From NCBI GenBank assembly GCA_031370785.1, contig JANMQY010000135.1:1-30800 (forward strand): a DNA stretch of 30,800 bases, read 5' to 3'. The translations under genes and the position numbers were made by a program. The DNA comes from Candidatus Eiseniibacteriota bacterium. Lineage in GTDB: Bacteria > Eisenbacteria > RBG-16-71-46. Position 1 is the stretch's first letter; each line of letters starts with the position of its first letter. Below the pieces are notes generated by a model. It had not been told where the DNA came from. It did not search any database and saw only the letters and a list, made by a program, of their open reading frames with translations. Shown one piece after another: positions 16,920 to 30,350 of this stretch.

Positions 16920-17772
16920 TCGAAAGAAATCTCGCGTCAAGCGCCGCGCCGCACCGAAGGGTCGAGCTGCGGCGAAGCGCACGCGCGCGGTGCGCAAGCC
17001 GCGACCGCCTCGCGCGCTGATCACGGTCGATGTCGGCAACAGCGAAACCGTGGTCGGCTGGTTCCGCGGTCGCGAGCTGGACGGCTTCTGGCGCCTGACC
17101 AGCGGACGGCAGACCGCGGATGAGATCGAGATCGTGCTGCAAGGGCTGCTGCGCAGCCGGGTGTCTCACTCGTCGCGCACCGGCGCTGTGCTGTGCTCGG
17201 TCGTGCCCGCGCTGACCTTCGCGTGGGTCGAGGCGCTGGCGCGCGTGAGTGGAACGACGCCGGTCGAGGTCACTGCCGAGACCGCGAAGACGCTCCCGAT
17301 CCGCTATCACGACCGGAGCGCGGTCGGCGCCGACCGCATCGCGAACGCGATCGCCGCGCGCGGGCTGTACGGCACGCCGGCCATCGTCGTCGATCTGGGA
17401 ACGGCGACCACGTTCGATTGCATCTCGAAGAGCGGCGCCTACCTCGGCGGCGTGATCGCGCCCGGGGTCGGCACCTCGGCCGAGGAGTTGTTCCGGCGCG
17501 CCGCACGCGTGCCGCGCGTCGAGCTGCGGAAGCCCCTGCGCGCGATCGGCCGCACCACCGAAGAGTCGCTGCGCGCTGGCGTGCTGTGGGGCGCAGCCGG
17601 GCAGGTCGATGCGCTGGTGCGCCGCATCGCGCTCGAGATGAAAGGCACGCCGCACGTGATCGCGACCGGAGGCTGGGCGAAGGCCGTGGCGCCCGAATGC
17701 GAGACCGTGAACACGGTGGATGAGGCGCTCACACTCAAAGGCATGCGCTTGATCTGGGAGGCGAATCGGTGA
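16912..17772 (+). CDS. coaX: Type III pantothenate kinase
   Basis: DVGNSETV, GADR, VDLGTATTFD, GGVIAPG and IATGG. GGAGG at 16901-16905 before ATG 16912. Basic N-terminal extension. Confidence 0.93.
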   Translation: MPDRKKSRVKRRAAPKGRAAAKRTRAVRKPRPPRALITVDVGNSETVVGWFRGRELDGFWRLTSGRQTADEIEIVLQGLLRSRVSHSSRTGAVLCSVVPALTFAWVEALARVSGTTPVEVTAETAKTLPIRYHDRSAVGADRIANAIAARGLYGTPAIVVDLGTATTFDCISKSGAYLGGVIAPGVGTSAEELFRRAARVPRVELRKPLRAIGRTTEESLRAGVLWGAAGQVDALVRRIALEMKGTPHVIATGGWAKAVAPECETVNTVDEALTLKGMRLIWEANR

Positions 17773-19748
17773 GGTTAACAGCCTCCGACCACCGACGTTA
17801 CGCGGGCCTCCTTTTCGCGGCGGCGGTGTCAATGAGTCTGCTCGATGCGTGGACCGGCGCCAAAGCCGACAAGCCAACTGTCGATCCGCGCAAGCTGCCG
17901 CCAATCCCGGTTGAACGGCTGAACGAAGCGATTGCCGTGAAAGCGGGCATCAGCCCGAAGCACCTTGGCAGGGCGGCCTCGACGGCTGGAACCGACAGCA
18001 GCTACGAGATCGATCTGATTCGAACCCTCGCGAGCACCGAATACGACGGCCGCGGGATCAGCACGAAGGGCATCGATCGAGCCGCATTCCTTCTCGCGTT
18101 CGATATGCAGGCGTTTGGACTTCGCGGTGCCGGGAGCGAAGCGATCAACGACACGACGTGGGAGGGAAGGCAGCCGTTCGGCCAGCCGTTCGAAGTTACG
18201 ACCGGCGTCGCGGTCGGCGAACCCTGCGCGGTTGAGGTCGCCGGCCGTCGCTTCGCAGTCGGCGCCGACATGCAGCCGATCGGATTCTCGACCAACGGCA
18301 CGCTGCGCGCGCCGGTCGTGTTCGCGGGCTACGGGATCACCGCGCCCGGCTTCGCGTACGACGACTACGCCGGGCTCGATGTGCACGACAGGATCGTGCT
18401 CGTGCTCAGCAACGAGCCCGACGAGATGGATTCGACCAGCAAGTTCGACGGCAGCGTCAACACGCCGCACGCGGAGCTGCGCACCAAGGCGATCAACGCA
18501 CGCGAGCACGGCGCGCTCGGGATTCTCGTGGTCGACGGTCCGCGCTTTCATACCGGCGAGCCGCTGCGCGCACCGAGCTTGACTGGCACCGGCTACATGA
18601 GCAGCGGCCTGCTCGCCGCGCGCATTTCGGCGACGGCCGCCGAGGCGCTGCTCGCGCCGGCCGGGCTCGACCTCGCCACCGCTCAGCGAGCGATCGATGC
18701 CCACGAGAGCCCACACAGCCTCGCCCTGCCCGAGTCTGCGGCCGTGACCGTGTCGCTCAAGCGCACGCGGGCCATGGTGAAAAACGTGCTGGGCTGGATC
18801 CCCGGTCGCGATACGACGCGCACTCTGGTGATCGGGGCGCACTACGATCACCTCGGATTCGGGGGAGAGGGCTCGCTCACGCCCGACTCGCACGTGCCGC
18901 ACCTCGGCGCCGACGACAACGCTTCGGGAGTGGCCGCGATGATGGTCGTGGCCCGCGACCTCGGGCGCCGCGTGAAGGCCGGCTGGCGCCCCGAGCACAA
19001 CCTCGTGTTCTGCGCGTTTACCGGAGAAGAGAGCGGACTGCTCGGCTCCGCCCACTTCGTCGACGATCCGACCCGACCGCTCGAGAGCATTGAAGCCATG
19101 ATCAACATGGACATGGTGGGCCGGCTGCGGAACAACAAGCTGCTGGTTTCGGGAGTCGGAACGGCGGATGAGTTCTCGGCGCTGATCGCGAACGCGAACC
19201 GCGCTGCCGGCTTCGATCTCAAGACCTCGCAAGACGGCTACGGTCCGAGCGATCACTCTTCGTTCTACAAGCGGCAGATCCCGGTACTGTTCCTGTTCAC
19301 CGGGGCGCACGCCGACTATCACAAGCCGAGCGACACCTGGGACAAGATCAACGAGCGGGGACTGTGGCGCATCTCGCGGTTCGCGGGGGCGCTGCTGGAA
19401 TCGCTGGATGCGCGGCCCCGAGTCCACTACCGGAAGGCGGAGTCGGACAGCTCGATCGGCCGCATCGCCGGGGGCGGCGGGTACGGCTCGTACCTCGGCA
19501 CCATCCCGGACTACATGCAGACGGAGGGCGGCGTGCTGCTCTCGGGCGTGCGCACGGGCGGTCCCGCGGACCAGGCCGGACTCAAAGGAGAAGACGTGAT
19601 CGTGAAGTTCGACGGAGTGCGGATCGACAACATCTACGACTACACCTACGCGCTTCGCTCGCGCCGGCCCGGGCAGAGCGTGCGCATCACGGTCAAGCGC
19701 GCGGGGAAGGAGCTGGATCTGGTCGCGACGCTCGGGAGGCGGCCGTGA
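17769..19748 (+). CDS. Secreted M28 family peptidase with PA and C-terminal PDZ domains
   Basis: VFAGYGI...DDYAG (PA domain); GAHYDHLG, GADDNASG, GEESGLLGS, NMDMVGR, SDHSSF, HADYHKPSD (M28); YLGTIPDY...GPADQAGL...GEDVIV (PDZ). Confidence 0.9.
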   Translation: MRLTASDHRRYAGLLFAAAVSMSLLDAWTGAKADKPTVDPRKLPPIPVERLNEAIAVKAGISPKHLGRAASTAGTDSSYEIDLIRTLASTEYDGRGISTKGIDRAAFLLAFDMQAFGLRGAGSEAINDTTWEGRQPFGQPFEVTTGVAVGEPCAVEVAGRRFAVGADMQPIGFSTNGTLRAPVVFAGYGITAPGFAYDDYAGLDVHDRIVLVLSNEPDEMDSTSKFDGSVNTPHAELRTKAINAREHGALGILVVDGPRFHTGEPLRAPSLTGTGYMSSGLLAARISATAAEALLAPAGLDLATAQRAIDAHESPHSLALPESAAVTVSLKRTRAMVKNVLGWIPGRDTTRTLVIGAHYDHLGFGGEGSLTPDSHVPHLGADDNASGVAAMMVVARDLGRRVKAGWRPEHNLVFCAFTGEESGLLGSAHFVDDPTRPLESIEAMINMDMVGRLRNNKLLVSGVGTADEFSALIANANRAAGFDLKTSQDGYGPSDHSSFYKRQIPVLFLFTGAHADYHKPSDTWDKINERGLWRISRFAGALLESLDARPRVHYRKAESDSSIGRIAGGGGYGSYLGTIPDYMQTEGGVLLSGVRTGGPADQAGLKGEDVIVKFDGVRIDNIYDYTYALRSRRPGQSVRITVKRAGKELDLVATLGRRP

Positions 19749-22530: not shown

Positions 22531-24771
22531 TCAGACGAGATCGAGCCTCACGCGCCGGAGCAACGTCTGATACCGCGGATCCTGGCGAATCGGATCGAGG
22601 CGCGGGTGGACGCGCAGAAACACGAGCCCGGTCGCGTGTTCTTCGACCGCGACGTCGAGCCAGCGGTAGGCTTGGTCCACGTCGCCGAGGGTCGCGTAAA
22701 GCGCGGCGATGCCCCACGCTGAGACCACGCGGTGGGAGCGGGCCTCGATCAGCTCCTGAAGGATGCGCCTCGCGGCGGCTTCGTTTCCGCTCCTCGCCTC
22801 CAGGTGAGCGAGGCCGAACGACGGTCCGGCCACACCGCCGCTCAGCCGTCTGCCTTCCTCGTACTCCCGTCGGGAATCGTCGAAACGACCGAGTGCCTCG
22901 AAAGAGCGGGCAAGGTCGGTGTGCGCGCCGTCGAAGCGGGGATCGAGATCGACTGCCTTCTGGTAGTAGACGATTGACCGCTCGTATTCGCGTGCGTAGA
23001 AGTACGCGTCCCCGACGCAGGTGTGCGTCATCATCGACAGCGGATCGAGGCTCAGCGCCTTCAGCATCGCTTCCTGCGCTTCCCGGTGACGTTCGGAGCA
23101 GTAATAGACGCTACCGAGGCTGGAGTACGCGCTGGTCAATCCGGGATTGAGATCGATGGCCCGCTGCAAGGACCGGATCGCACCGGGGAGATCCATCTCG
23201 TGCGACTCAACCGCTCCCAGTGCGGCATGGGCCTCGGCAAGGGAATCGTCCAGCTCAAGCGCTTTCATCGCGGCCTCGCGGGCCTGCGCATTCGCCTCGG
23301 CCGGCGGAGCCATGCCTCGACCGCCGCGGACGATGTGGCAATACGCGATCCCCGCCCATATCGGGGCGTAGGTCGGGTCGAGCTCGAGCGCACGCTGGAA
23401 GTGCCGCAGGGCCATCTCGATCGCCTGCGGCGAGCCACCGGCGACCAAGTGGCGGCCCTTCAGATATTCGACGTGCGCCTCGGGGTTCACGGGCCGCCGT
23501 TTCGCGAGCTGAGTTGCCTCGCGCGGCGTCACCTGCACCGCGATTTCCTTCGCCACCGTTTCCGCAACCCGGCTCTGGAGATCGAGGACGTCCTCGATCT
23601 CGCCGTCGTACCGGTCGGTCCACAGCGTCTCGTCCGTCCTTGCCGATACGAGCCGCACCGTGACGCGCACGCGCTTGCCGATGAGGAGCGCCGAACCCTC
23701 GAGGATCGCGTCTACGCTCAATTCGTGCGCGATCTCGGGCAGGCCTTTCTGGGCCCCCTTGTACTTCATGGCCGACGTGCGCGAGATCACCCGCAGCGCC
23801 TTGAGGCGCGCGAGTTCCGAGATCAGCGCTTCGGTCATGGCGTCGGCGAAGTACTCCTGAGCCGGATCGCGTGAAACATTGTCGAACGGAAGCACCGCGA
23901 GCGAACGGATCACGTCGCGCCCGGGCTCCGGCGCGACGCCGCGTTGCGCCTGCTCGCGGATGTGGCGCAGCGTCTGGCTCACGACCCCCGCGGAAGCGGG
24001 GCGCAGCGCGGGGTCCTTGTTCAGGCACGACTCGATCAACCGGTCGAGCTCGTGCGGAGCCTCCGGCCGAAGCGAGCGCACCGGGCGGGTCGCCCCGTGC
24101 AGGATCTCGAACATCAAAGCCTCGGGCCGGCTCTTTTCGAACGGCCGGCGGCCGGTCGCCATCTCGTAGATCATCGCGCCCAGTGCATAGACGTCGGTGC
24201 GGGAATCGTCCGCTTTGCCGCGCAACTGCTCGGGCGCCATGTACGGAAGCGAGCCGAGAATCGCGCCCGACTGCGTCAGGCTGGTCGCGGTGTGAGATGA
24301 GTGCAGCAGGCCGGCCAGGCCGAAATCGAGGATCTTCGGAGTCCCCGCGGCAGTGAGAACGATGTTGCCGGGTTTCAGGTCGCGATGGAGGAACCCTCGG
24401 CGGTGCGCAACCTCGAGCGCATCGCCGATCTCCGCTCCGATCCGGCTCAGCTCATCGAGATCGAGCGGGCCTTCCTGTAGGCGCGACTGGAGGGTGCCGC
24501 CCGGGACGTATTCCATGACCAAGAAATCGACGCCATCCTGGGTGTCGAAGTCGAAGATCGTTGCCACGCCCGGATGGGACAGGCGGGAGAGGACCTGCGC
24601 CTCGCGGTGGAAACGCTCGCGCGCCCTGGGGTCCGCGAGCGCGCCGCGCAGGAGCACCTTGACCGCAACGTCGCGGTCGAGATGCAGATCGTGCGCACGG
24701 TATGCCTCGCCCATGCCGCCGGCGCCGAGCAGCTCGAGGATGCGATAGTGAGAAAGAGTCGTTCCGATCAT
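22531..24771 (-). CDS. Hanks-type Ser/Thr protein kinase with TolB-N-like and TPR domains
   Basis: LGAGGMGE, VAVK, HRDLKPGN, DFG, YMAPE and DVYALG, then SLAVLPFDN..EYFADAMTE and TPR helices. Likely start MIGTTLSHY at 24771. Confidence 0.92.
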   Translation of the reverse strand: MIGTTLSHYRILELLGAGGMGEAYRAHDLHLDRDVAVKVLLRGALADPRARERFHREAQVLSRLSHPGVATIFDFDTQDGVDFLVMEYVPGGTLQSRLQEGPLDLDELSRIGAEIGDALEVAHRRGFLHRDLKPGNIVLTAAGTPKILDFGLAGLLHSSHTATSLTQSGAILGSLPYMAPEQLRGKADDSRTDVYALGAMIYEMATGRRPFEKSRPEALMFEILHGATRPVRSLRPEAPHELDRLIESCLNKDPALRPASAGVVSQTLRHIREQAQRGVAPEPGRDVIRSLAVLPFDNVSRDPAQEYFADAMTEALISELARLKALRVISRTSAMKYKGAQKGLPEIAHELSVDAILEGSALLIGKRVRVTVRLVSARTDETLWTDRYDGEIEDVLDLQSRVAETVAKEIAVQVTPREATQLAKRRPVNPEAHVEYLKGRHLVAGGSPQAIEMALRHFQRALELDPTYAPIWAGIAYCHIVRGGRGMAPPAEANAQAREAAMKALELDDSLAEAHAALGAVESHEMDLPGAIRSLQRAIDLNPGLTSAYSSLGSVYYCSERHREAQEAMLKALSLDPLSMMTHTCVGDAYFYAREYERSIVYYQKAVDLDPRFDGAHTDLARSFEALGRFDDSRREYEEGRRLSGGVAGPSFGLAHLEARSGNEAAARRILQELIEARSHRVVSAWGIAALYATLGDVDQAYRWLDVAVEEHATGLVFLRVHPRLDPIRQDPRYQTLLRRVRLDLV

Positions 24772-24817
24772 GGTGGGCCCGTGACACGGGGTGCGGCAGG
24801 GTAACATGATTCTCGAC

Positions 24818-24846: not shown

Positions 24847-24912
24847 CCCGGCTCCGCGGGCGCTATCGTGAGCGCATGCGCGGGAACGTCACATTTCATC
24901 AGGAGGCGCTTT

Positions 24913-25032
24913 ATGGAAGAGAAGGATGTCGCTCAGGTTCCCTTCTTTGCCCACTTCCTCGAGAGCCAGGAGAAAGTACTCACACCCATCGGCCGGAGTC
25001 TGAAGTATCCCTCGGACACCGACGAAGATTAG
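24913..25032 (+). CDS. Microviridin/marinostatin-family graspetide precursor peptide, 39 aa (MEEKDVAQVPFFAHFLESQEKVLTPIGRSLKYPSDTDED)
   Basis: Translated by hand; it is absent from the ORF track. AGGAGG lies 6 nt before the ATG. Leader PFFAHFL (canonical PFFARFL) and core SLKYPSD (canonical TxKYPSD). Directly upstream of two ATP-grasp ligases. Confidence 0.93.
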   Translation: MEEKDVAQVPFFAHFLESQEKVLTPIGRSLKYPSDTDED

Positions 25033-25037
25033 TCTCA

Positions 25038-25135
25038 CCTCCGCCAGGCGGAGGCAGCAGACCTTCGCCAAACCTCACGAGACCGGCGGTTGACAGGCAT
25101 GCGGAATTCTCCGTAGCCGTTCATTCGCCGGTCTC
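25038..25135 (+). promoter_or_regulatory. Two stem-loops between the precursor and the first ATP-grasp gene
   Basis: cctccgc-cag-gcggagg (25038-25054), and a long imperfect hairpin closed by gagaccggcg (25079-25088) / cgccggtctc (25126-25135). Confidence 0.6.
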
Positions 25136-25150
25136 CATGGGGGCGCCCCC

Positions 25151-26131
25151 TTGTCCCGATCGAAATCGGTTGTTCTCATCCTCACCCACAGCGCCGATTT
25201 CTATACGGTGGACCTCGTCGCCGAAGCGATCACCCGCAGGGGCCTGCGGGCGATTCGATTCGACACCGATCAGTTTCCGGCGCGCGCACATGCGTCCGCA
25301 TTCCTCGGACCCCGCGATGATCGGCTCGAACTTCATGACGGAAGCCAGGCGGTGGATTCGCGTGAAGTGGGCGCGGTCTGGCTCCGTCACGTCTCGAAGC
25401 CCGCGCTGGCGGCGGATGTGGATTCTCGATTTCGCGATGCAGCCGAACGCGAGTCCTCCGCTGCACTGCGCGCGGCTTTGGACTTCCTGAGCGGCGCGCA
25501 CTGGATCAACCATCCCTCGGCGGTGGCGCGTGCGGGCGACAAGCTCCTTCAGCTCCGACTCGCTCGCGAGGCAGGCCTCGACATCCCGCGCTCGCTGCTC
25601 ACCAACGATCCTCGTGAGGCACGCGAATTCTTTTCCGCGGTGGATGGCAGGCTGGTGGCCAAGATGCTGACGCCGCTCAGCACGAGCATGGATGCGTCGG
25701 GGCCTTTCGTGTACACGAGCAGAGTGGACGAGGACGACCTGTCCGCAGCCGACAGCCTGCGCCACGCGCCGATGCTCTTCCAGCAGGAGATCGCGAAGGC
25801 GCGCGAGCTGCGCGTCGTGGCAGTGCGCGGCGAGTTGTTCGTCGGTGCGCTCGAAGCGCCGGATTCGGATACCGGCGTCGTGGATTGGCGGCTCATGGAC
25901 CCGGCCGAGCGCAGGTGGGAGCGCGACTCCCTGCCGGACGACTGCGCGCGGTCGTTGCGCACGATGCTCGAGTCGCTGGGCCTCGAATTCGGCGCGGCCG
26001 ATCTGATCCGGACTCCCGAGGGGCGCCACGTGTTCCTCGAAGTGAACGCCTGCGGGGAATGGGGCATGCTCGAGCGCGATCTGGGCTATCCCATCTCCGA
26101 GGCTCTGGCATGCGCCCTGTGCGAACGATGA
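25151..26131 (+). CDS. ATP-grasp RiPP ligase, MvdC/MdnB-like (amide-forming)
   Basis: VLILTHSADFYTVDLVAEAI, RFDTDQFP, KLLQLRLA, KMLTPLSTSM, FQQEI..ARELRV, DWR and FLEVNACGEWGMLERDLGYPISEA. These resemble MdnB/MvdC as recalled; no alignment was run. Confidence 0.88.
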   Translation: MSRSKSVVLILTHSADFYTVDLVAEAITRRGLRAIRFDTDQFPARAHASAFLGPRDDRLELHDGSQAVDSREVGAVWLRHVSKPALAADVDSRFRDAAERESSAALRAALDFLSGAHWINHPSAVARAGDKLLQLRLAREAGLDIPRSLLTNDPREAREFFSAVDGRLVAKMLTPLSTSMDASGPFVYTSRVDEDDLSAADSLRHAPMLFQQEIAKARELRVVAVRGELFVGALEAPDSDTGVVDWRLMDPAERRWERDSLPDDCARSLRTMLESLGLEFGAADLIRTPEGRHVFLEVNACGEWGMLERDLGYPISEALACALCER

Positions 26132-27147
26132 GCGAACCGGTCCTGATCGTCACCCGGTCGGACGACAATGACTGCGTCCCCAGGGTCGTCAAGGCGCTGC
26201 GGCATCGGGGCGCGATGCCCGTGCGCTTCGACACCGATCGCTTCCCGACCGAGACTCGCCTTTCGATTCGCTACGACGGCCCCGACGAGCGCGTGCAGCT
26301 GGCGACACCCGAGGCCGAAGTCGACCTCGCGGAAGCGAGCGCCGTGTGGCACCGCCGCCTCGCATTCGGAAAGCGCATCTCCGAGTCCATGGAGTCACAG
26401 ATGCGCGACGCCTGCATTCAGGAGTCGCGCGCCACCGCCATGGGACTCATCGCCAGCCTGGGGGCGTTTCACCTCGACCGCGAAGCCAGCATCCGCTCCG
26501 CACAGCACAAGCCGCTGCAGCTCAGCGTGGCACGCGAGCTGGGACTGGAGACGCCGCGCACGCTGATCACGAACGATCCGCGCGCCGTCCGCGAGTTCGT
26601 TGCGGACTGTCCGGGCGGAGTGGTGGCCAAGATGCTGTCGTCGTTCGCGATTCGCGAGAACGGCCACGAGAAGGTCGTGTTCACCACGCCATTGAAACCC
26701 TCCGACCTGGAACGAATGAACGGGCTCGAGCTGAGCCCGATGACGTTTCAGGAGCGCGTGCCCAAGGCGCTCGAGTTACGGGTCACCGTCGTCGGCGAGC
26801 GCGTGCTTGCGGCCGCGGTCGACTCGAATGCTCTGACCGGGGCCGACGCCGACTGGAGACGTCGCGGCTCGGACCTCGAGAACGCCTGGAAACCTCATGC
26901 CATGCCGCCCGACATCGAACGACGCGTTTCACGGTTCATGGATTCCTTCGGACTGAACTATGGCGCGCTGGATTTCATCCTGACGCCCGATCGCCGCTGG
27001 GTGTTTCTCGAGATCAATCCGGTCGGCGAGTACTTCTGGCTCGACCATCTCTTCTCCCCGTCGATCTCAGAAGCATTGGCAGACACGCTGCTGGGTCTGG
27101 CTCCCCGGCGCGAGGGCCTCGCTTCGGCGGTGCAGGCGGCCCGGTAG
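26128..27147 (+). CDS. ATP-grasp RiPP ligase, MvdD/MdnC-like (ester-forming)
   Basis: ATG 26128 overlaps the upstream stop (ATGA). VLIVTRSDDN, RFDTDRFPTE, AVWHRR, HKPLQL, KMLSSFAI, VVFT, PMTFQERVPKALELRVT, DWR, FGLNYGALDFILTPD and FLEINPVGEYFWL. These resemble MdnC/MvdD as recalled. Confidence 0.9.
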   Translation: MSEPVLIVTRSDDNDCVPRVVKALRHRGAMPVRFDTDRFPTETRLSIRYDGPDERVQLATPEAEVDLAEASAVWHRRLAFGKRISESMESQMRDACIQESRATAMGLIASLGAFHLDREASIRSAQHKPLQLSVARELGLETPRTLITNDPRAVREFVADCPGGVVAKMLSSFAIRENGHEKVVFTTPLKPSDLERMNGLELSPMTFQERVPKALELRVTVVGERVLAAAVDSNALTGADADWRRRGSDLENAWKPHAMPPDIERRVSRFMDSFGLNYGALDFILTPDRRWVFLEINPVGEYFWLDHLFSPSISEALADTLLGLAPRREGLASAVQAAR

Positions 27148-27283: not shown

Positions 27284-29764
27284 ATGAAAGTCGCGAGCCG
27301 CTCCCCGCGCGGGCAGGTGCTGGTGCCCGCCACCCTGCTTGTCATGATCTCCTTTCTTGCGTCCCCAGCCCCGGCGAAAGCCGCCTGGTCCAACGCGCCG
27401 ACGCTGAATCTGCCGGTCTGCACCGCGACGGGCGATCAGTACAGCCCGGTTCTCGCTCCGGATGGGATCGGGGGCCAGTACATTGCCTGGTACGACTACA
27501 GGAGCGGGCTCTCGCGGGTCTACGCCCAGCACATTCTGGGTTCCGGTCAGCCCGATCCGGCCTGGCCCGCCAACGGCCTACCCGTCACCACGAATGCTCC
27601 CCAGCAAATCTTTCCCAAGCTGGTCTCCGACGGCGGTCGTGGCGTGATCGTCTCGTGGGAGGACGGTCGAAACACCAGCTGGGACATCTTCGCTCAGCAT
27701 CTAATCGTGACCGGCGTGGACCCGGCCTGGCCCGCAACCGGCCGTGCTGTGTGCACCGACCCCTTCGCCCAGAACTACCATTCGAGCATCTCGGATGGAG
27801 CGGGAGGTGTCATTCTCGCATGGACGGACTTTCGTACCTCCGGCAGTACCGGGCAGGATATCTATGCAGCGCATGTCCTCGCCTCGGGCGTGGTCGATCC
27901 CGCCTGGCCGGTGAACGGCCGGGCGATCGTTACAGCTACCGGGAACCAGAGCGCGTCTCCGCTACCCATAGTCCCCGATGGTGCCGGCGGCGCGGTGATC
28001 GCCTGGGCCGACTACCGGACGGGCACCGCGGACATCTACGCCCAGCACGTGCAGGGAACCGGAGCCGTGGACCCCGCATGGCCTGCTGACGGAAGAGCGT
28101 TGTGCGTCGCCGCCGGCGCTCAGACGTTTCCGGTCGCCGTTGAAGATGGTTCGGGCGGGGCGATTGTCGCGTGGCAGGATGGACGCGCGGTTTTTCATAC
28201 CTATGCGAACCATGTCCTCGCGAACGGAGCGATCGCGCCCGGATGGCCGGCGGACGGGCTTTCGACCAACACGGGAGTTTCGTCTCAGGCATCGCCCATC
28301 CTGACCGGCGATGGGGCAGGAGGCGGGATCTGCCTCTGGACCGACAGCAGAAATGGACCGCAGGATGCGTATGCCCAACACCTCACCCCGACGGGCGTGG
28401 ACGCGAGCTGGCCGGCCGATGGTGTGGGCGTGGTGGTGCAACCCGCCCTCCAGTACGTGGGCGGCGCGGTGTCGGATGGGGCCGGCGGTGCGATCGCCCT
28501 CTGGCACGACAGCCGCAACGGTGGCTATGACCTGTACGCCCAGCACCTGCTGGCCAGCGGTGCGCTGGACTCGCGCTGGCCGGTCGGCGGCCGCGCGCTG
28601 TGCACTGCATCTGGAGATCAGGTCTCTTCGCAGAATGTGGTCTCGGACGGCGCGGGCGGCATGGTCGCCGTCTGGCAGGACAACCGATCGGGAACCAACG
28701 ACATCTACGCCCAGCGCGTCGCGCGCTTTGGCTACCTCGGCACGCCCGAGGCCGAGATCGCCAGCGTGAAAGACGTGCCGAACGATCAGGGCGGCAAGGT
28801 CAAGCTTTCGTGGTACGCGTCGTATCTCGACACCAACAACGATCCCAATCTCAACTACTACGAGATCTACCGCTCGATCGCGCCGAACGCCGCGCAGGCG
28901 GCGCTCCGGCGCGGGGCGCGGATGCTGAGCGGCCCCGCCGACGCTCCCAAGTCGGGCGAGAAGGCGATCCTCGCGCCCTCGGCGGCAACCGGCGCGTACT
29001 TCTGGGAGCTCATCAACACGCTCTACGTCTCGCACTACATACCGACCTACAGCTATGTCGCGCCGACCGCGAGCGACTCGACGGGCGCCTACAATCCGCG
29101 CACTGCTTTCATGATCGTCGGCAGGAGCTACGACGCGTCGTACTACTGGCTGTCGCGGCCCGACAGCGGATACTCGGTGGACAATCTGCCGCCCTTCACG
29201 CCCGCGCCTTTCACCGGCCAGTACTCGGCGGGCTCGGCAACGCTCCACTGGAATCCCAATCCTGAAGCCGATCTGGCGAACTACCGGCTCTATCGCGGAA
29301 CTTCGACGTCGTTCGTGCCGGGCCCGGGCAATCTCGTGGCGTCACCGCCCGACACTGGCTTCACCGATGCGGCGGGCGCGCCTTACTACTACAAGCTCTC
29401 GGCGGTGGATACGCACGGGAACGAGAGCGGCTTCGCGCTGCTGACGCCGAGCGGCGTGTTGGACGTGCCGGGCGGCGGTCTGCCGGCCCGAGTCGCGTTC
29501 GCGACACCGTGGCCCAACCCCGCGAGGGAGTCGGCGCGATTCGCGCTCGCGATGCCGAGAGACGCGAGGGTCTCGCTCGGGATCTTCGACCCCAGCGGTC
29601 GCCGCTTGCATGAGCTGGTCTCGGGCAGCCTGCCCGCGGGCGAGCACACGCGAGTCTGGGATCTTAGGGATGACGCCGGCCATCGCGTGGCGCCCGGCCT
29701 TTATTTCGCGACGCTCGATGTGGACGGAGCGAGGATCACGCGGAGGTTTGCGGTCGTGAGGTAA
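27284..29764 (+). CDS. Large secreted protein: eight ~56-aa propeller-like repeats, FN3-like domain, C-terminal FlgD-Ig/T9SS-like domain
   Basis: GGAGG SD, ATG 27284 and a signal peptide ending AKA. Eight DGxGG..WxDxR..YAQH repeats; LHWNPNPEADLANYRLYR...YYYKLSAVDTHGNES (FN3); PWPNP...IFDPSGR...WDLRDDAGHRVAPGLYF (C-terminal domain). Confidence 0.85.
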   Translation: MKVASRSPRGQVLVPATLLVMISFLASPAPAKAAWSNAPTLNLPVCTATGDQYSPVLAPDGIGGQYIAWYDYRSGLSRVYAQHILGSGQPDPAWPANGLPVTTNAPQQIFPKLVSDGGRGVIVSWEDGRNTSWDIFAQHLIVTGVDPAWPATGRAVCTDPFAQNYHSSISDGAGGVILAWTDFRTSGSTGQDIYAAHVLASGVVDPAWPVNGRAIVTATGNQSASPLPIVPDGAGGAVIAWADYRTGTADIYAQHVQGTGAVDPAWPADGRALCVAAGAQTFPVAVEDGSGGAIVAWQDGRAVFHTYANHVLANGAIAPGWPADGLSTNTGVSSQASPILTGDGAGGGICLWTDSRNGPQDAYAQHLTPTGVDASWPADGVGVVVQPALQYVGGAVSDGAGGAIALWHDSRNGGYDLYAQHLLASGALDSRWPVGGRALCTASGDQVSSQNVVSDGAGGMVAVWQDNRSGTNDIYAQRVARFGYLGTPEAEIASVKDVPNDQGGKVKLSWYASYLDTNNDPNLNYYEIYRSIAPNAAQAALRRGARMLSGPADAPKSGEKAILAPSAATGAYFWELINTLYVSHYIPTYSYVAPTASDSTGAYNPRTAFMIVGRSYDASYYWLSRPDSGYSVDNLPPFTPAPFTGQYSAGSATLHWNPNPEADLANYRLYRGTSTSFVPGPGNLVASPPDTGFTDAAGAPYYYKLSAVDTHGNESGFALLTPSGVLDVPGGGLPARVAFATPWPNPARESARFALAMPRDARVSLGIFDPSGRRLHELVSGSLPAGEHTRVWDLRDDAGHRVAPGLYFATLDVDGARITRRFAVVR

Positions 29765-29784
29765 CGAGGACTCCGCGCGCATGC

Positions 29785-29817
29785 CGAAGCCCTCGCGAGA
29801 GTATCGCGAGGGCTTCG
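29785..29817. terminator. Perfect 14-bp stem-loop after the propeller gene
   Basis: cgaagccctcgcga-gagta-tcgcgagggcttcg. There is no strong U-tract, so terminator function is inferred. Confidence 0.55.
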
Positions 29818-29858
29818 CGCTTGAGCGGGCGCGCACCCCGCACTATCTTCGCGAGCCG

Positions 29859-30350
29859 ATGATTACCATCCGACCCGCCGCGAAGTCCGACGAGGCCGCC
29901 CTCGGGCGCCTTGGCGCTGCGCTCATGCGTCAGCATCACGCGTCCGATCCCAGGCGCTTCATCATCGTGGATCGGCCCGAGGCCGGTTACGGGCGGTTTC
30001 TCGTCTCGATGCTCGCAAACCCCGACTTCCGGGTGCTGGTCGCGGAGCGGTCGGACGAGGTCGTCGGATACGTGCTTGCCGCAATCGAGCCGACGAGCTG
30101 GAAGGACCTGCGCGGTCCCTGTGGATTCATCCACGACGTCTACGTCCACGAGAGTGCGCGCCGCCAGGGCTTCGGGCAGGATCTCGTGCGCGCGGCGATC
30201 GCCTGGGTTCATTCCAGGGGTTTGTCGCAGGTCGTGCTCTGGAGTAAATCCGGCAACGAATCTGCGCAACGCCTGTTCGCCAAACTCGGCTTCCGTGACA
30301 CGATGGTCGAGATGACGCTCGATCAAGAAGCCTCGGAAACCAGAGGTTGA
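29859..30350 (+). CDS. GNAT family N-acetyltransferase
   Basis: MITIRPA, VLVAE...VVGY, IHDVYVHESARRQGFG (motif A) and NESAQRLFAKLGF. Start 29859 is preferred because the 29781 start reads through the hairpin. Confidence 0.88.
   Translation: MITIRPAAKSDEAALGRLGAALMRQHHASDPRRFIIVDRPEAGYGRFLVSMLANPDFRVLVAERSDEVVGYVLAAIEPTSWKDLRGPCGFIHDVYVHESARRQGFGQDLVRAAIAWVHSRGLSQVVLWSKSGNESAQRLFAKLGFRDTMVEMTLDQEASETRG

Follow-up and report, generated by a model that had tools for sequence, protein, structure and literature searches.

The window, by which we mean the whole 30,800-nucleotide stretch of DNA analysed here, contains with a probability of about 80% an intact three-gene cluster of the microviridin type (graspetide group 1), predicted to yield a tricyclic peptide that is likely a serine-protease inhibitor. 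A precursor gene and the genes for two ATP-grasp ligases are present as an earlier interpretation of the DNA letters (the sequence-only reading) had claimed, and family scores, structures and a tree agree with this assignment (Table 1). The host is an uncultured sediment bacterium of Candidatus Eisenbacteria with 68% GC, which bears out the high-GC, uncultured and non-cyanobacterial host proposed earlier, and it shares its GTDB family with a named Candidatus Eisenbacteria MAG. The cluster is a fairly ordinary member of the microviridin family, and its product is a predicted cage-shaped protease inhibitor.

Table 1. Features of the cluster and its spacers, in positions of the window
Feature	Position	Strand	Remarks
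Candidate promoter, weak sigma-70-like consensus match	24781-24810	+	GTGACA-18-CATGAT
Shine-Dalgarno sequence AGGAGG	24901-24906	+	6 nt 5´ of the precursor ATG
Precursor gene	24913-25032	+	39 codons, class I, single core
Short G+C-rich hairpin without T-run	25038-25054	+	6 nt past the precursor stop codon
Long hairpin	25079-25135	+	57 nt, between precursor gene and ligase 1
Ligase 1, ATP-grasp, predicted lactam (amide) ligase	25151-26131	+	326 aa, TTG start
Ligase 2, ATP-grasp, predicted lactone (ester) ligase	26128-27147	+	339 aa

The precursor peptide

Translation of 24913-25032 on the forward strand gave exactly the 39 amino acid peptide quoted before, and the strong Shine-Dalgarno sequence claimed for it is indeed located at 24901-24906; the orthologous locus L088 has GGAGG at the equivalent place. 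In the mechanical list of open reading frames the precursor frame appears as a 54 amino acid ORF starting from a GTG at 24868. The gene had been described as unannotated, which is correct in that no product name is attached to it, but the identical peptide is already present as a gene call, on the 30,800-base contig, in the public protein collection. An exhaustive search of representative proteins with the precursor returned 22 matches at E <= 0.001.

The precursor scores above the curated cut-offs of both family models, with 24.7 bits against Pfam PF12559 (cut-off 21) and 30.4 bits against NCBIfam NF033738 (cut-off 26). Thus, the family assignment holds, whereas the motifs expected by the sequence-only reading, PFFARFL and TxKYPSD, are not matched to the letter: the leader helix motif reads PFFAHFL (residues 10-16) and the core, SLKYPSDTDED (residues 29-39), has SxKYPSD. 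Arg28 is located immediately N-terminal to the core, and the computed mass of the unmodified precursor is 4495.189 Da. In microviridins, ester bonds connect a Ser or Thr hydroxyl to an Asp or Glu carboxyl and the amide connects Lys to Glu (PMC8939145). All ring-forming residues are present here in the published register (hydroxyl residue, x, Lys, x, Pro, Ser, Asp, x, acid, acid). Aligned to the core motif TxKxPSDx(D/E)(D/E) (PMC12848669) the peptide reads S-L-K-Y-P-S-D-T-D-E, with Ser in place of the literal Thr; the strict motif fits only 121 of 185 precursors (PMC8939145). A motif scan of the whole 3.44-Mb genome found leader and core motifs together at the precursor gene only; one leader-like match on contig C84 and one core-like match on contig C68 each occur without the other motif.

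The two ligases

The two ATP-grasp genes overlap as claimed, and the ATGA at 26128-26131 is real. The context of the TTG start of ligase 1 is preserved in L088. For ligase 2 an alternative start exists at ATG 26110, with GAGG 7 nt upstream, that would give a protein of 345 amino acids and is adopted by the public gene call P0129; the shorter version agrees better with the N-termini of homologues, and ligase 2 overlaps ligase 1 with either start.

Comparison with the ligase family models, which had been suggested as a check, gave MvdC as the best model for ligase 1 (TIGR04185, 387.1 bits, versus 253.8 for the MvdD model TIGR04184) and MvdD for ligase 2 (TIGR04184, 429.6 bits, versus 277.5 for TIGR04185); PF21068 matches the two with 101.6 and 126.3 bits, respectively. 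Since both scores fall short of the NCBI equivalog cut-offs (425 for TIGR04185, 475 for TIGR04184), we file the enzymes as MvdC-type and MvdD-type and not as NCBI equivalogs. The MvdD equivalog cut-off is reached by none of 201 searched genomes of the phylum. The best solved relatives of ligase 1 are PDB 5ig8 (2.9e-93) and 7m4s, 'AMdnB' (4.2e-87), and the best structure for ligase 2 is PDB 5ig9 (2.5e-97), which is MdnC (PMC7823629). In a tree of 45 rows, ligase 1 and ligase 2 were placed in the MvdC-type and the MvdD-type clade, each with a support of 100/100. Where 21 relatives are invariant, ligase 1 agrees with them in 58 of 60 columns; ligase 2 agrees with its relatives in 69 of 72 such columns. 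An assignment to RimK or another non-graspetide ATP-grasp family, named earlier as the outcome that would overturn the proposal, does not apply because the RimK model TIGR00768 gives only 42.1 and 30.4 bits with the two ligases (cut-off 143.4); with the Pfam RimK model, ligase 1 reaches 17.8 bits (cut-off 21) and ligase 2 has no match.

Proposed biosynthesis

We infer the steps of biosynthesis from the pathway that has been published for MdnA/B/C and MvdE/C/D (PMC7823629, PMC8939145). The leader helix PFFAHFL would dock on the ligases and activate them. Ligase 2 would then use ATP to form the large lactone between Ser29 and Asp35 first and the small lactone between Ser34 and Asp37 afterwards, and ligase 1 would make the lactam between Lys31 and Glu38, so that three waters would be lost in total. 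The computed monoisotopic masses are 4459.168 for the precursor minus two waters, 4441.158 for the precursor minus three, and 1214.509 for the tricyclic 11-residue core. The leader would be cut off by an unlinked protease; in E. coli, MdnA-C alone gave leaderless microviridin (PMC7823629). The resulting cage is predicted to display Leu30 as specificity residue. Leu at this position leads us to predict elastase-, subtilisin- or chymotrypsin-like targets and not trypsin-like ones, and Leu or Val at position 5 led to inhibition of elastase and subtilisin (PMC7823629). Leu is also the commonest specificity residue among the related cores (88 of 212), as is Asp-Glu among their acid pairs (125 of 212).

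Rare residues in precursor and ligases

Two precursor residues are rare: Ser instead of Thr at the first ring position is found in 3 of 214 related cores, and PFFAHFL in place of PFFARFL in 1 of 124 leaders. In addition, ligase 1 has Ala in the stretch FLEVNACGEW where Pro is otherwise invariant in 21 relatives. These deviations could mean that the cluster is active but makes a non-classical product, either because Ser29, His14 or the Pro-to-Ala change halts processing at a mono- or bicyclic stage (marinostatin-like, with esters only), or because Thr36 or Asp39 allows another topology. A review describes the ligases as inflexible at conserved ring residues (PMC7823629), and a sister Eisenbacteria locus (L009) combines a Lys-containing precursor with an MvdD-type ligase alone, both of which would fit such a product. 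However, Lys31 and Glu38 are present here and ligase 1 is intact, its Pro-to-Ala change is shared by the sister variant P0127, every microviridin builds its second lactone on a Ser hydroxyl, and three multi-core precursors (L012, L043 and L121) carry Ser-cores beside Thr-cores within one peptide. We therefore regard a non-classical product as unlikely and retain the tricyclic microviridin as the preferred reading.

The rare Ser29 and the leader His are not errors, since both are retained in sister variants. The variant P0124 differs in 2 of 39 residues and has kept His14 as well as Ser29; the core of P0131 reads GRSLKFPSDTDED. On a contig from a second study the precursor gene shows four changes, of which two are silent and two result in V9I and H14Q; the Ser29 codon is unaltered and the ring-forming residues are untouched. 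Across 20 aligned precursors Pro10, Phe11, Phe12 and Leu16 are invariant. At the leader Arg position, the clade of short precursors (n = 7) has Arg three times, His twice and Gln twice. A literature search for a Thr-to-Ser change in microviridin gave only unrelated papers.

The leader Arg has been described to contact Glu191, Asp192 and Asn195 of MdnC (PMC7823629), and the corresponding residues of ligase 2 are Ser192, Asp193 and Arg196. Compensation of the ligase 2 changes by the leader His was considered and rejected: L088/P0006 has Ala and Arg there, yet its leader contains Arg. It might be possible that a small sediment lineage of the Eisenbacteria type exists, in which precursors of 38-42 amino acids leave the leader Arg, otherwise regarded as essential, free to vary (Arg, His or Gln), the first lactone is formed on Ser and the leader-binding hairpin of the ester ligase is remodelled (Ser or Ala at the Glu191 position, Arg at the Asn195 position), resulting in a different grip on the leader. 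This proposal is tentative, and we would not bet on it; if it is true, the resulting tricyclic inhibitor would escape genome mining based on TxKxPSD.

Candidate promoter and spacer structures

The candidate promoter is located in the 140-nt divergent spacer between a kinase gene and the precursor gene; the search for sigma-70-like sites found one, with 0.3 expected from shuffled sequences. For the Ser/Thr kinase upstream of the cluster, matches occur in 2 of 83 related loci, one strong (L054) and the other weak, and in 2 of 80 from a second set, again a strong one (L154) and a weak one; we take this as chance.

The spacer that separates the precursor gene from ligase 1 is structured. The fold of 25025-25155 has a z-score of -5.53, and none of 200 shuffled sequences was equally stable. 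The equivalent of the long hairpin in L088 has a z-score of -4.49, and in the alignment of these two sequences 5 of 23 pairs are changed on both sides and still paired. Structure in this spacer is found in some relatives: z is below -4 in three of six, and the other three have -2.29, -0.73 and +0.45. The hairpin has no Rfam match beyond chance and no second copy in the genome, so that a known RNA and a genomic repeat were both rejected. The hairpins probably keep the level of precursor mRNA above that of the enzyme mRNA, and the short one may act as an attenuator or stabiliser.

Genomic neighbourhood

The cluster had been called minimal, and this is overstated: downstream, on the same strand, follow the gene for a secreted 847 amino acid beta-propeller protein (27284-29764) and, 2.6 kb from the cluster, a gene for a GNAT acetyltransferase (29781-30350). 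A link between the GNAT gene and the cluster was not found, but it keeps a small probability. The operon might comprise more than three genes and include both of these, with the GNAT N-acetylating the product as MdnD/MvdB does. The common strand and the gaps of 136 nt after ligase 2 and 16 nt between the 847 amino acid gene and the GNAT gene are consistent with such an extension, and in cyanobacterial clusters MdnD/MvdB is a GNAT (PMC7823629). In the related loci (83 and 80), however, tblastn gave no match (E <= 1e-3) to either of the downstream proteins, and the genes downstream of related clusters vary between loci. The GNAT has one weak match to the RiPP N-acetyltransferase model NF041716 (26.9 bits, cut-off 250) but otherwise matches generic acetyltransferase models only, far below their cut-offs, and a GGAGG site of its own precedes the 847 amino acid gene, whose start resembles a signal peptide. 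A longer operon thus appears improbable, and we keep to a cluster of three genes; the genes next to it gave no sign of a transporter, a leader peptidase or a linked acetyltransferase.

Distribution and relatives

Of 83 related loci, 80 have their genes in the order precursor, MvdC-type ligase, MvdD-type ligase, with hosts among the Acidobacteriota, Myxococcota, Planctomycetota and Cyanobacteriota, and the ligases of relatives are already named MvdD in public records. The novelty of the pathway had therefore been overstated, since the identical three-gene module is common outside cyanobacteria. Precursors with two to four cores make up 65 of 122. A metagenome scan with ligase 2 as sole query found no relative; a scan with the alignment A2 gave 80 loci. 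In the main texts searched, no publication joining microviridin with Eisenbacteria was found, nor were the core and leader strings.

Among near relatives of the host the cluster is patchy: ligase 2 is matched in 2 of 41, the host genome counted among them, and a search of 201 genomes from the phylum gave matches to the MvdD model at E <= 1e-40 in 5. The composition gives no signal of horizontal transfer, the G+C content being 65.5% for the cluster and 67.8% for the genome. In the tree, each ligase falls together with its counterpart from a different Eisenbacteria genome, which indicates that the lineage has carried the cluster for some time. That it is a silent or decaying remnant of a horizontal acquisition, yielding no product, would fit the patchy spread and the rare precursor residues but is highly improbable given the three open frames with a strong ribosome-binding site, the G+C content near that of the genome, the retained invariant columns of both ligases, the residence in the lineage, and changes in the second-study precursor that are silent or lie off the ring-forming residues.

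With this cluster, a candidate phylum without a cultured member joins the hosts of microviridin-type protease inhibitors. Mining rules that take the TxKxPSD core or the PFFxRFx leader literally would drop natural variants, and the natural variants with Ser29 and His or Gln at position 14 are ready-made probes of ligase tolerance at a ring residue and at the leader Arg. Otherwise the cluster is a routine natural-product lead.

Comparison with known systems

The ligases of chryseoviridin (CdnC) and of the myxomiditides (MyxF subclade) are ATP-grasp graspetide enzymes from the same branch of the superfamily, and CdnC (PDB 7mgv) matches ligase 2 at 5.2e-66. These systems have extra ligases and rings, for example (KxxE)n lactams (PMC12848669). 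In contrast, the cluster described here has no third ligase and no KxxE repeat.

Marinostatin is a bicyclic diester from marine proteobacteria (MEROPS I10 / Pfam PF12559) that contains two ester rings only and is not known to have the lactam Lys. Its precursor belongs to the same Pfam and NCBIfam family as ours and has a similar PSDxDE-type tail in which Asp accepts the second ester, whereas our cluster has both Lys31 and an MvdC-type ligase.

Cyanobacterial microviridins are made from MdnA by MdnB and MdnC in Microcystis and from MvdE by MvdC and MvdD in Planktothrix. Our cluster resembles these systems in the PFFARFL-type leader, the one core at the C-terminus, whose ring residues stand in the same register, the two paralogous ATP-grasp ligases, each of which has an orthologue here, and the gene order A, B, C. 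It differs in the Ser for Thr at the first lactone and the His for Arg in the leader, in the very short precursor (39 amino acids) and in the acid pair, which is Asp-Glu here while classical cyanobacterial cores such as those of L028 and L030 end with WEEY. Moreover, neither an adjacent ABC transporter nor a linked GNAT accompanies it, its ligases both score under the equivalog cut-offs of NCBIfam and the host belongs to Candidatus Eisenbacteria.

The same three-gene module, in the same order, is found in clusters of Acidobacteriota (Pyrinomonadaceae, Blastocatellia), Myxococcota, Planctomycetota and Candidatus Eisenbacteria MAG_AAO_H125.51. These clusters have Thr cores and mostly an Arg leader, many of their precursors are multi-core, and the TLKYPSDTDE cores of L010 and L087 differ from the SLKYPSDTDE found here at the first residue only. 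In the nearest orthologue, L088, the precursor has 42 amino acids and both ligases are 69-71% identical to those of the cluster.

Family assignment and layout

The short peptide and the two ligases encoded downstream of it score as a microviridin precursor and its two ATP-grasp enzymes. On Pfam PF12559 the precursor reaches 24.7 bits, above the curated cut-off of 21, and on the NCBIfam model NF033738, titled [quoted passage not shown], it reaches 30.4 bits where 26 are required. The ligases score best on the MvdC and the MvdD model, respectively (ligase 1: 387.1 bits vs 253.8 on MvdD; ligase 2: 429.6 bits vs 277.5 on MvdC), although these scores miss the NCBI equivalog cut-offs of 425 and 475. 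The MvdD pre-ATP-grasp domain PF21068 is found in both (101.6 bits in ligase 1, 126.3 bits in ligase 2). The closest solved structures of ligase 1 are 5ig8 (2.9e-93), which we take to be MdnB, and 7m4s (4.2e-87), deposited as "AMdnB protein". That of ligase 2 is 5ig9 (2.5e-97), which is MdnC according to PMC7823629. Membership in the RimK family, which the sequence-only reading had named as the outcome speaking against it, is contradicted by the RimK-family models, which reach 30-42 bits on the ligases against a cut-off of 143.

The ATP-grasp tree proposed by the same reading also agrees with the assignment. The maximum-likelihood tree had 45 rows, taken from the two window enzymes and both ligases of 22 loci, with HSPs below 280 aa left out; the loci were chosen by hand from 160 for taxonomic spread and so that carriers of Ser-cores and His-leaders were included. 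It consists of two clades, each supported at 100/100, which separate ligase 1 from ligase 2. Each window enzyme adjoins its counterpart in L088, a metagenome locus and the nearest orthologous one (69% and 71% identity), followed by a Candidatus Eisenbacteria MAG.

The layout of the cluster corresponds to what had been read from the DNA: the peptide quoted there is identical to our translation, the strong Shine-Dalgarno sequence is present, and the ligase genes overlap in ATGA, in which the start of ligase 2 overlaps the stop of ligase 1, whereas 3 nt separate the two genes in L088. An alternative ligase 2 start at 26110, with GAGG 7 nt upstream, gives 345 aa and is the one adopted in the public record P0129; the shorter form is the better fit to the N-termini of homologues.

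Features of the cluster and its surroundings
Feature	Position	Strand	Remark
Ser/Thr kinase with TPR repeats	22531-24772	-	upstream of cluster
Shine-Dalgarno AGGAGG	24901-24906	+	6 nt before precursor start
Precursor gene, 39 codons	24913-25032	+	translation
Spacer, precursor to ligase 1, 118 nt	25033-25150	+	
Short hairpin	25038-25054	+	fold of 25025-25155
Long hairpin, 57 nt	25079-25135	+	fold of 25025-25155
Ligase 1 gene, 326 codons	25151-26131	+	TTG start
Ligase 2 gene, 339 codons	26128-27147	+	ATG start
847-aa protein	27284-29764	+	signal-peptide-like start, beta-propeller repeats (TIGR04275), FlgD Ig-like / T9SS-tail-like C-terminus
GNAT acetyltransferase	29781-30350	+	2.6 kb 3' of ligases; generic models only

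Distribution and the conserved unit

The window spans contig C96 (30,800 bases) from end to end. Its genome (3.44 Mb, 147 contigs, 67.8% G+C) contains one precursor and two ligases of microviridin type in a whole-genome search, and near-identical DNA was present in sediment and freshwater-sediment metagenome runs from two studies. A match to ligase 2 occurs in 2 of 41 near relatives, the window genome counted, and in the phylum the MvdD model finds 5 of 201 genomes at E <= 1e-40, three of which (G000, G002, G072) reach at least 390 bits. G002, Candidatus Eisenbacteria bacterium MAG_AAO_H125.51, belongs to the same GTDB family as the window genome. The module is common in other phyla: the collection of species-representative genomes held 577 stretches with a relative, the best 80 of which came from Cyanobacteriota, Acidobacteriota (Pyrinomonadaceae, Blastocatellia), Myxococcota, Planctomycetota and one Clostridia-labelled MAG. 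For ligase 2, a word-index search returned 1,358 relatives, and many of these already bear the source label "MvdD family ATP-grasp ribosomal peptide maturase".

In 80 of 83 related loci, the MvdD-type gene has an MvdC-type gene immediately 5' of it, and the genes 3' of the ligase pair vary between the 20 loci examined. Thus, conservation is confined to the module of three genes. None of the 163 related loci searched had a counterpart of the 847-aa protein or of the GNAT nearby, and a counterpart of the kinase was present near a few (2 of 83 and 2 of 80). Further upstream, 5 kb from the cluster, an M28 peptidase-PDZ fusion (17769-19748, + strand) precedes the genes of a PD40 beta-propeller protein and of GroEL.

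The sister genome G002 has a second microviridin-type locus (L009, 3227-4487, on its contig C27), in which a 49-aa precursor containing Lys immediately precedes an MvdD-type ligase. The 3.5 kb upstream contain no gene of MvdC type, and the product may be ester-only in spite of the Lys.

Typical and rare residues

Of 160 related loci surveyed, 111 had a recognisable precursor, giving 122 or 124 unique sequences depending on the count. In most respects the window precursor is ordinary. Like 57 of 122 it has a single core, and it shows the commonest choice at each of these places: Leu behind the initial hydroxyl residue (88 of 212), the acid pair Asp-Glu (125/212), Tyr preceding Pro (167/212) and, among the single-core precursors, a one-residue tail past the core (25/57). 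TLKYPSDTDE cores occur in one Blastocatellia MAG and in Archangium gephyra. Two residues of the window precursor are rare: Ser as first ring residue (Thr 211, Ser 3 among 214 cores) and His at residue 5 of the leader motif (Arg 116, Lys 7, His 1 among 124). The window core agrees with the TxKYPSD core that the sequence-only reading gave for microviridins in KYPSD and departs from it at the first letter, which is Ser29 and not Thr.

The following sequences show that Ser29 occurs in nature as a stable variant, and that position 5 of the leader motif is relaxed in the window lineage. The sister peptide P0124 (39 aa, from another assembly) differs only by T24S and Y32F. In P0131, a 38-aa representative, the leader has Arg and the core reads GRSLKFPSDTDED. 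A second-study contig over 24827-25028 (a single contig, depth ~3) differs within the gene by V9I, H14Q and two silent substitutions but has an identical Ser29 codon. Across seven short precursors from the clade, this leader residue is Arg in 3, His in 2 and Gln in 2. In L012, L043 and L121, multi-core precursors combine one Ser-core with Thr-cores in one chain, so the same enzymes presumably accept both.

H14Q (24952-24954) and V9I (24937) were seen in second-study contigs of the metagenome runs X6 and X7, in which a loose end at 24971 leads to a more diverged P0130-type precursor with a Gln leader and a Thr core. These variants indicate that several precursor variants coexist in these sediments. 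Paired precursors occur in five Planctomycetota-type loci (L076, L123, L125, L137, L152), one of each pair having a poly-Gly run of up to ~20 Gly between leader and core.

According to PMC7823629, MdnA Arg17 touches MdnC Glu191, Asp192 and Asn195; in ligase 2, aligned to 5ig9, these are Ser192, Asp193 and Arg196. A specific response of ligase 2 to the leader His is ruled out, since P0006, the L088 enzyme, has Ala, Asp and Arg at these positions beside an Arg leader. Thus, the leader-contact changes are clade-wide. Conservation is high otherwise: ligase 1 keeps 58 of the 60 columns invariant among 21 tree partners (lost: T148S, P300A) and ligase 2 keeps 69 of 72 among 22 (lost: P85S, L268S, F302Y). 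P300A is located within a conserved stretch, here FLEVNACGEW, and is also present in the sister variant P0127.

A structured spacer

The region 25025-25155 folds far better than its shuffles (z = -5.53), and the L088 spacer has a matching two-hairpin layout (z = -4.49). Base and tip of the long stem are common to both, and in the two-sequence alignment 5 of its 23 pairs are altered on both sides yet still paired. Among six relatives, z was below -4 in three (L088, L017, L076) and -2.29, -0.73 and +0.45 in the others. The hairpin matched no Rfam family and had no second copy in the window genome. A plausible role for the spacer hairpins would be to maintain more transcript of the precursor than of the enzymes.

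Proposed pathway and comparison with known clusters

The following steps are modelled on the microviridin pathway as described in PMC7823629, PMC8939145 and PMC12848669. The leader helix would activate both ligases; the MvdD-type ligase 2 would close the ring Ser29-Asp35 first and then Ser34-Asp37, the MvdC-type ligase 1 would form the ring Lys31-Glu38, and the leader would be cut off by a protease unlinked to the cluster. MdnA-C are enough by themselves in E. coli, as stated in PMC7823629, which also connects Leu or Val at the specificity position with inhibition of elastase and subtilisin; in the product predicted here, Leu30 would be this residue.

A literature search of main texts found no paper pairing "microviridin" with "Eisenbacteria", and none with SLKYPSD, LKYPSDTDE, PFFAHFL or PFFAQFL. 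Published mining demanded the motif TxKxPSDx(D/E)(D/E) (PMC12848669), from which the window core deviates at the first letter. The cluster is otherwise an ordinary microviridin cluster of class I, and clusters like it have been surveyed since 2017. One such survey is reportedly that of Ahmed et al., cited in PMC8939145 and PMC7823629. Cyanobacterial clusters have a GNAT of their own, MdnD/MvdB, whereas the GNAT of the window matches generic models only.
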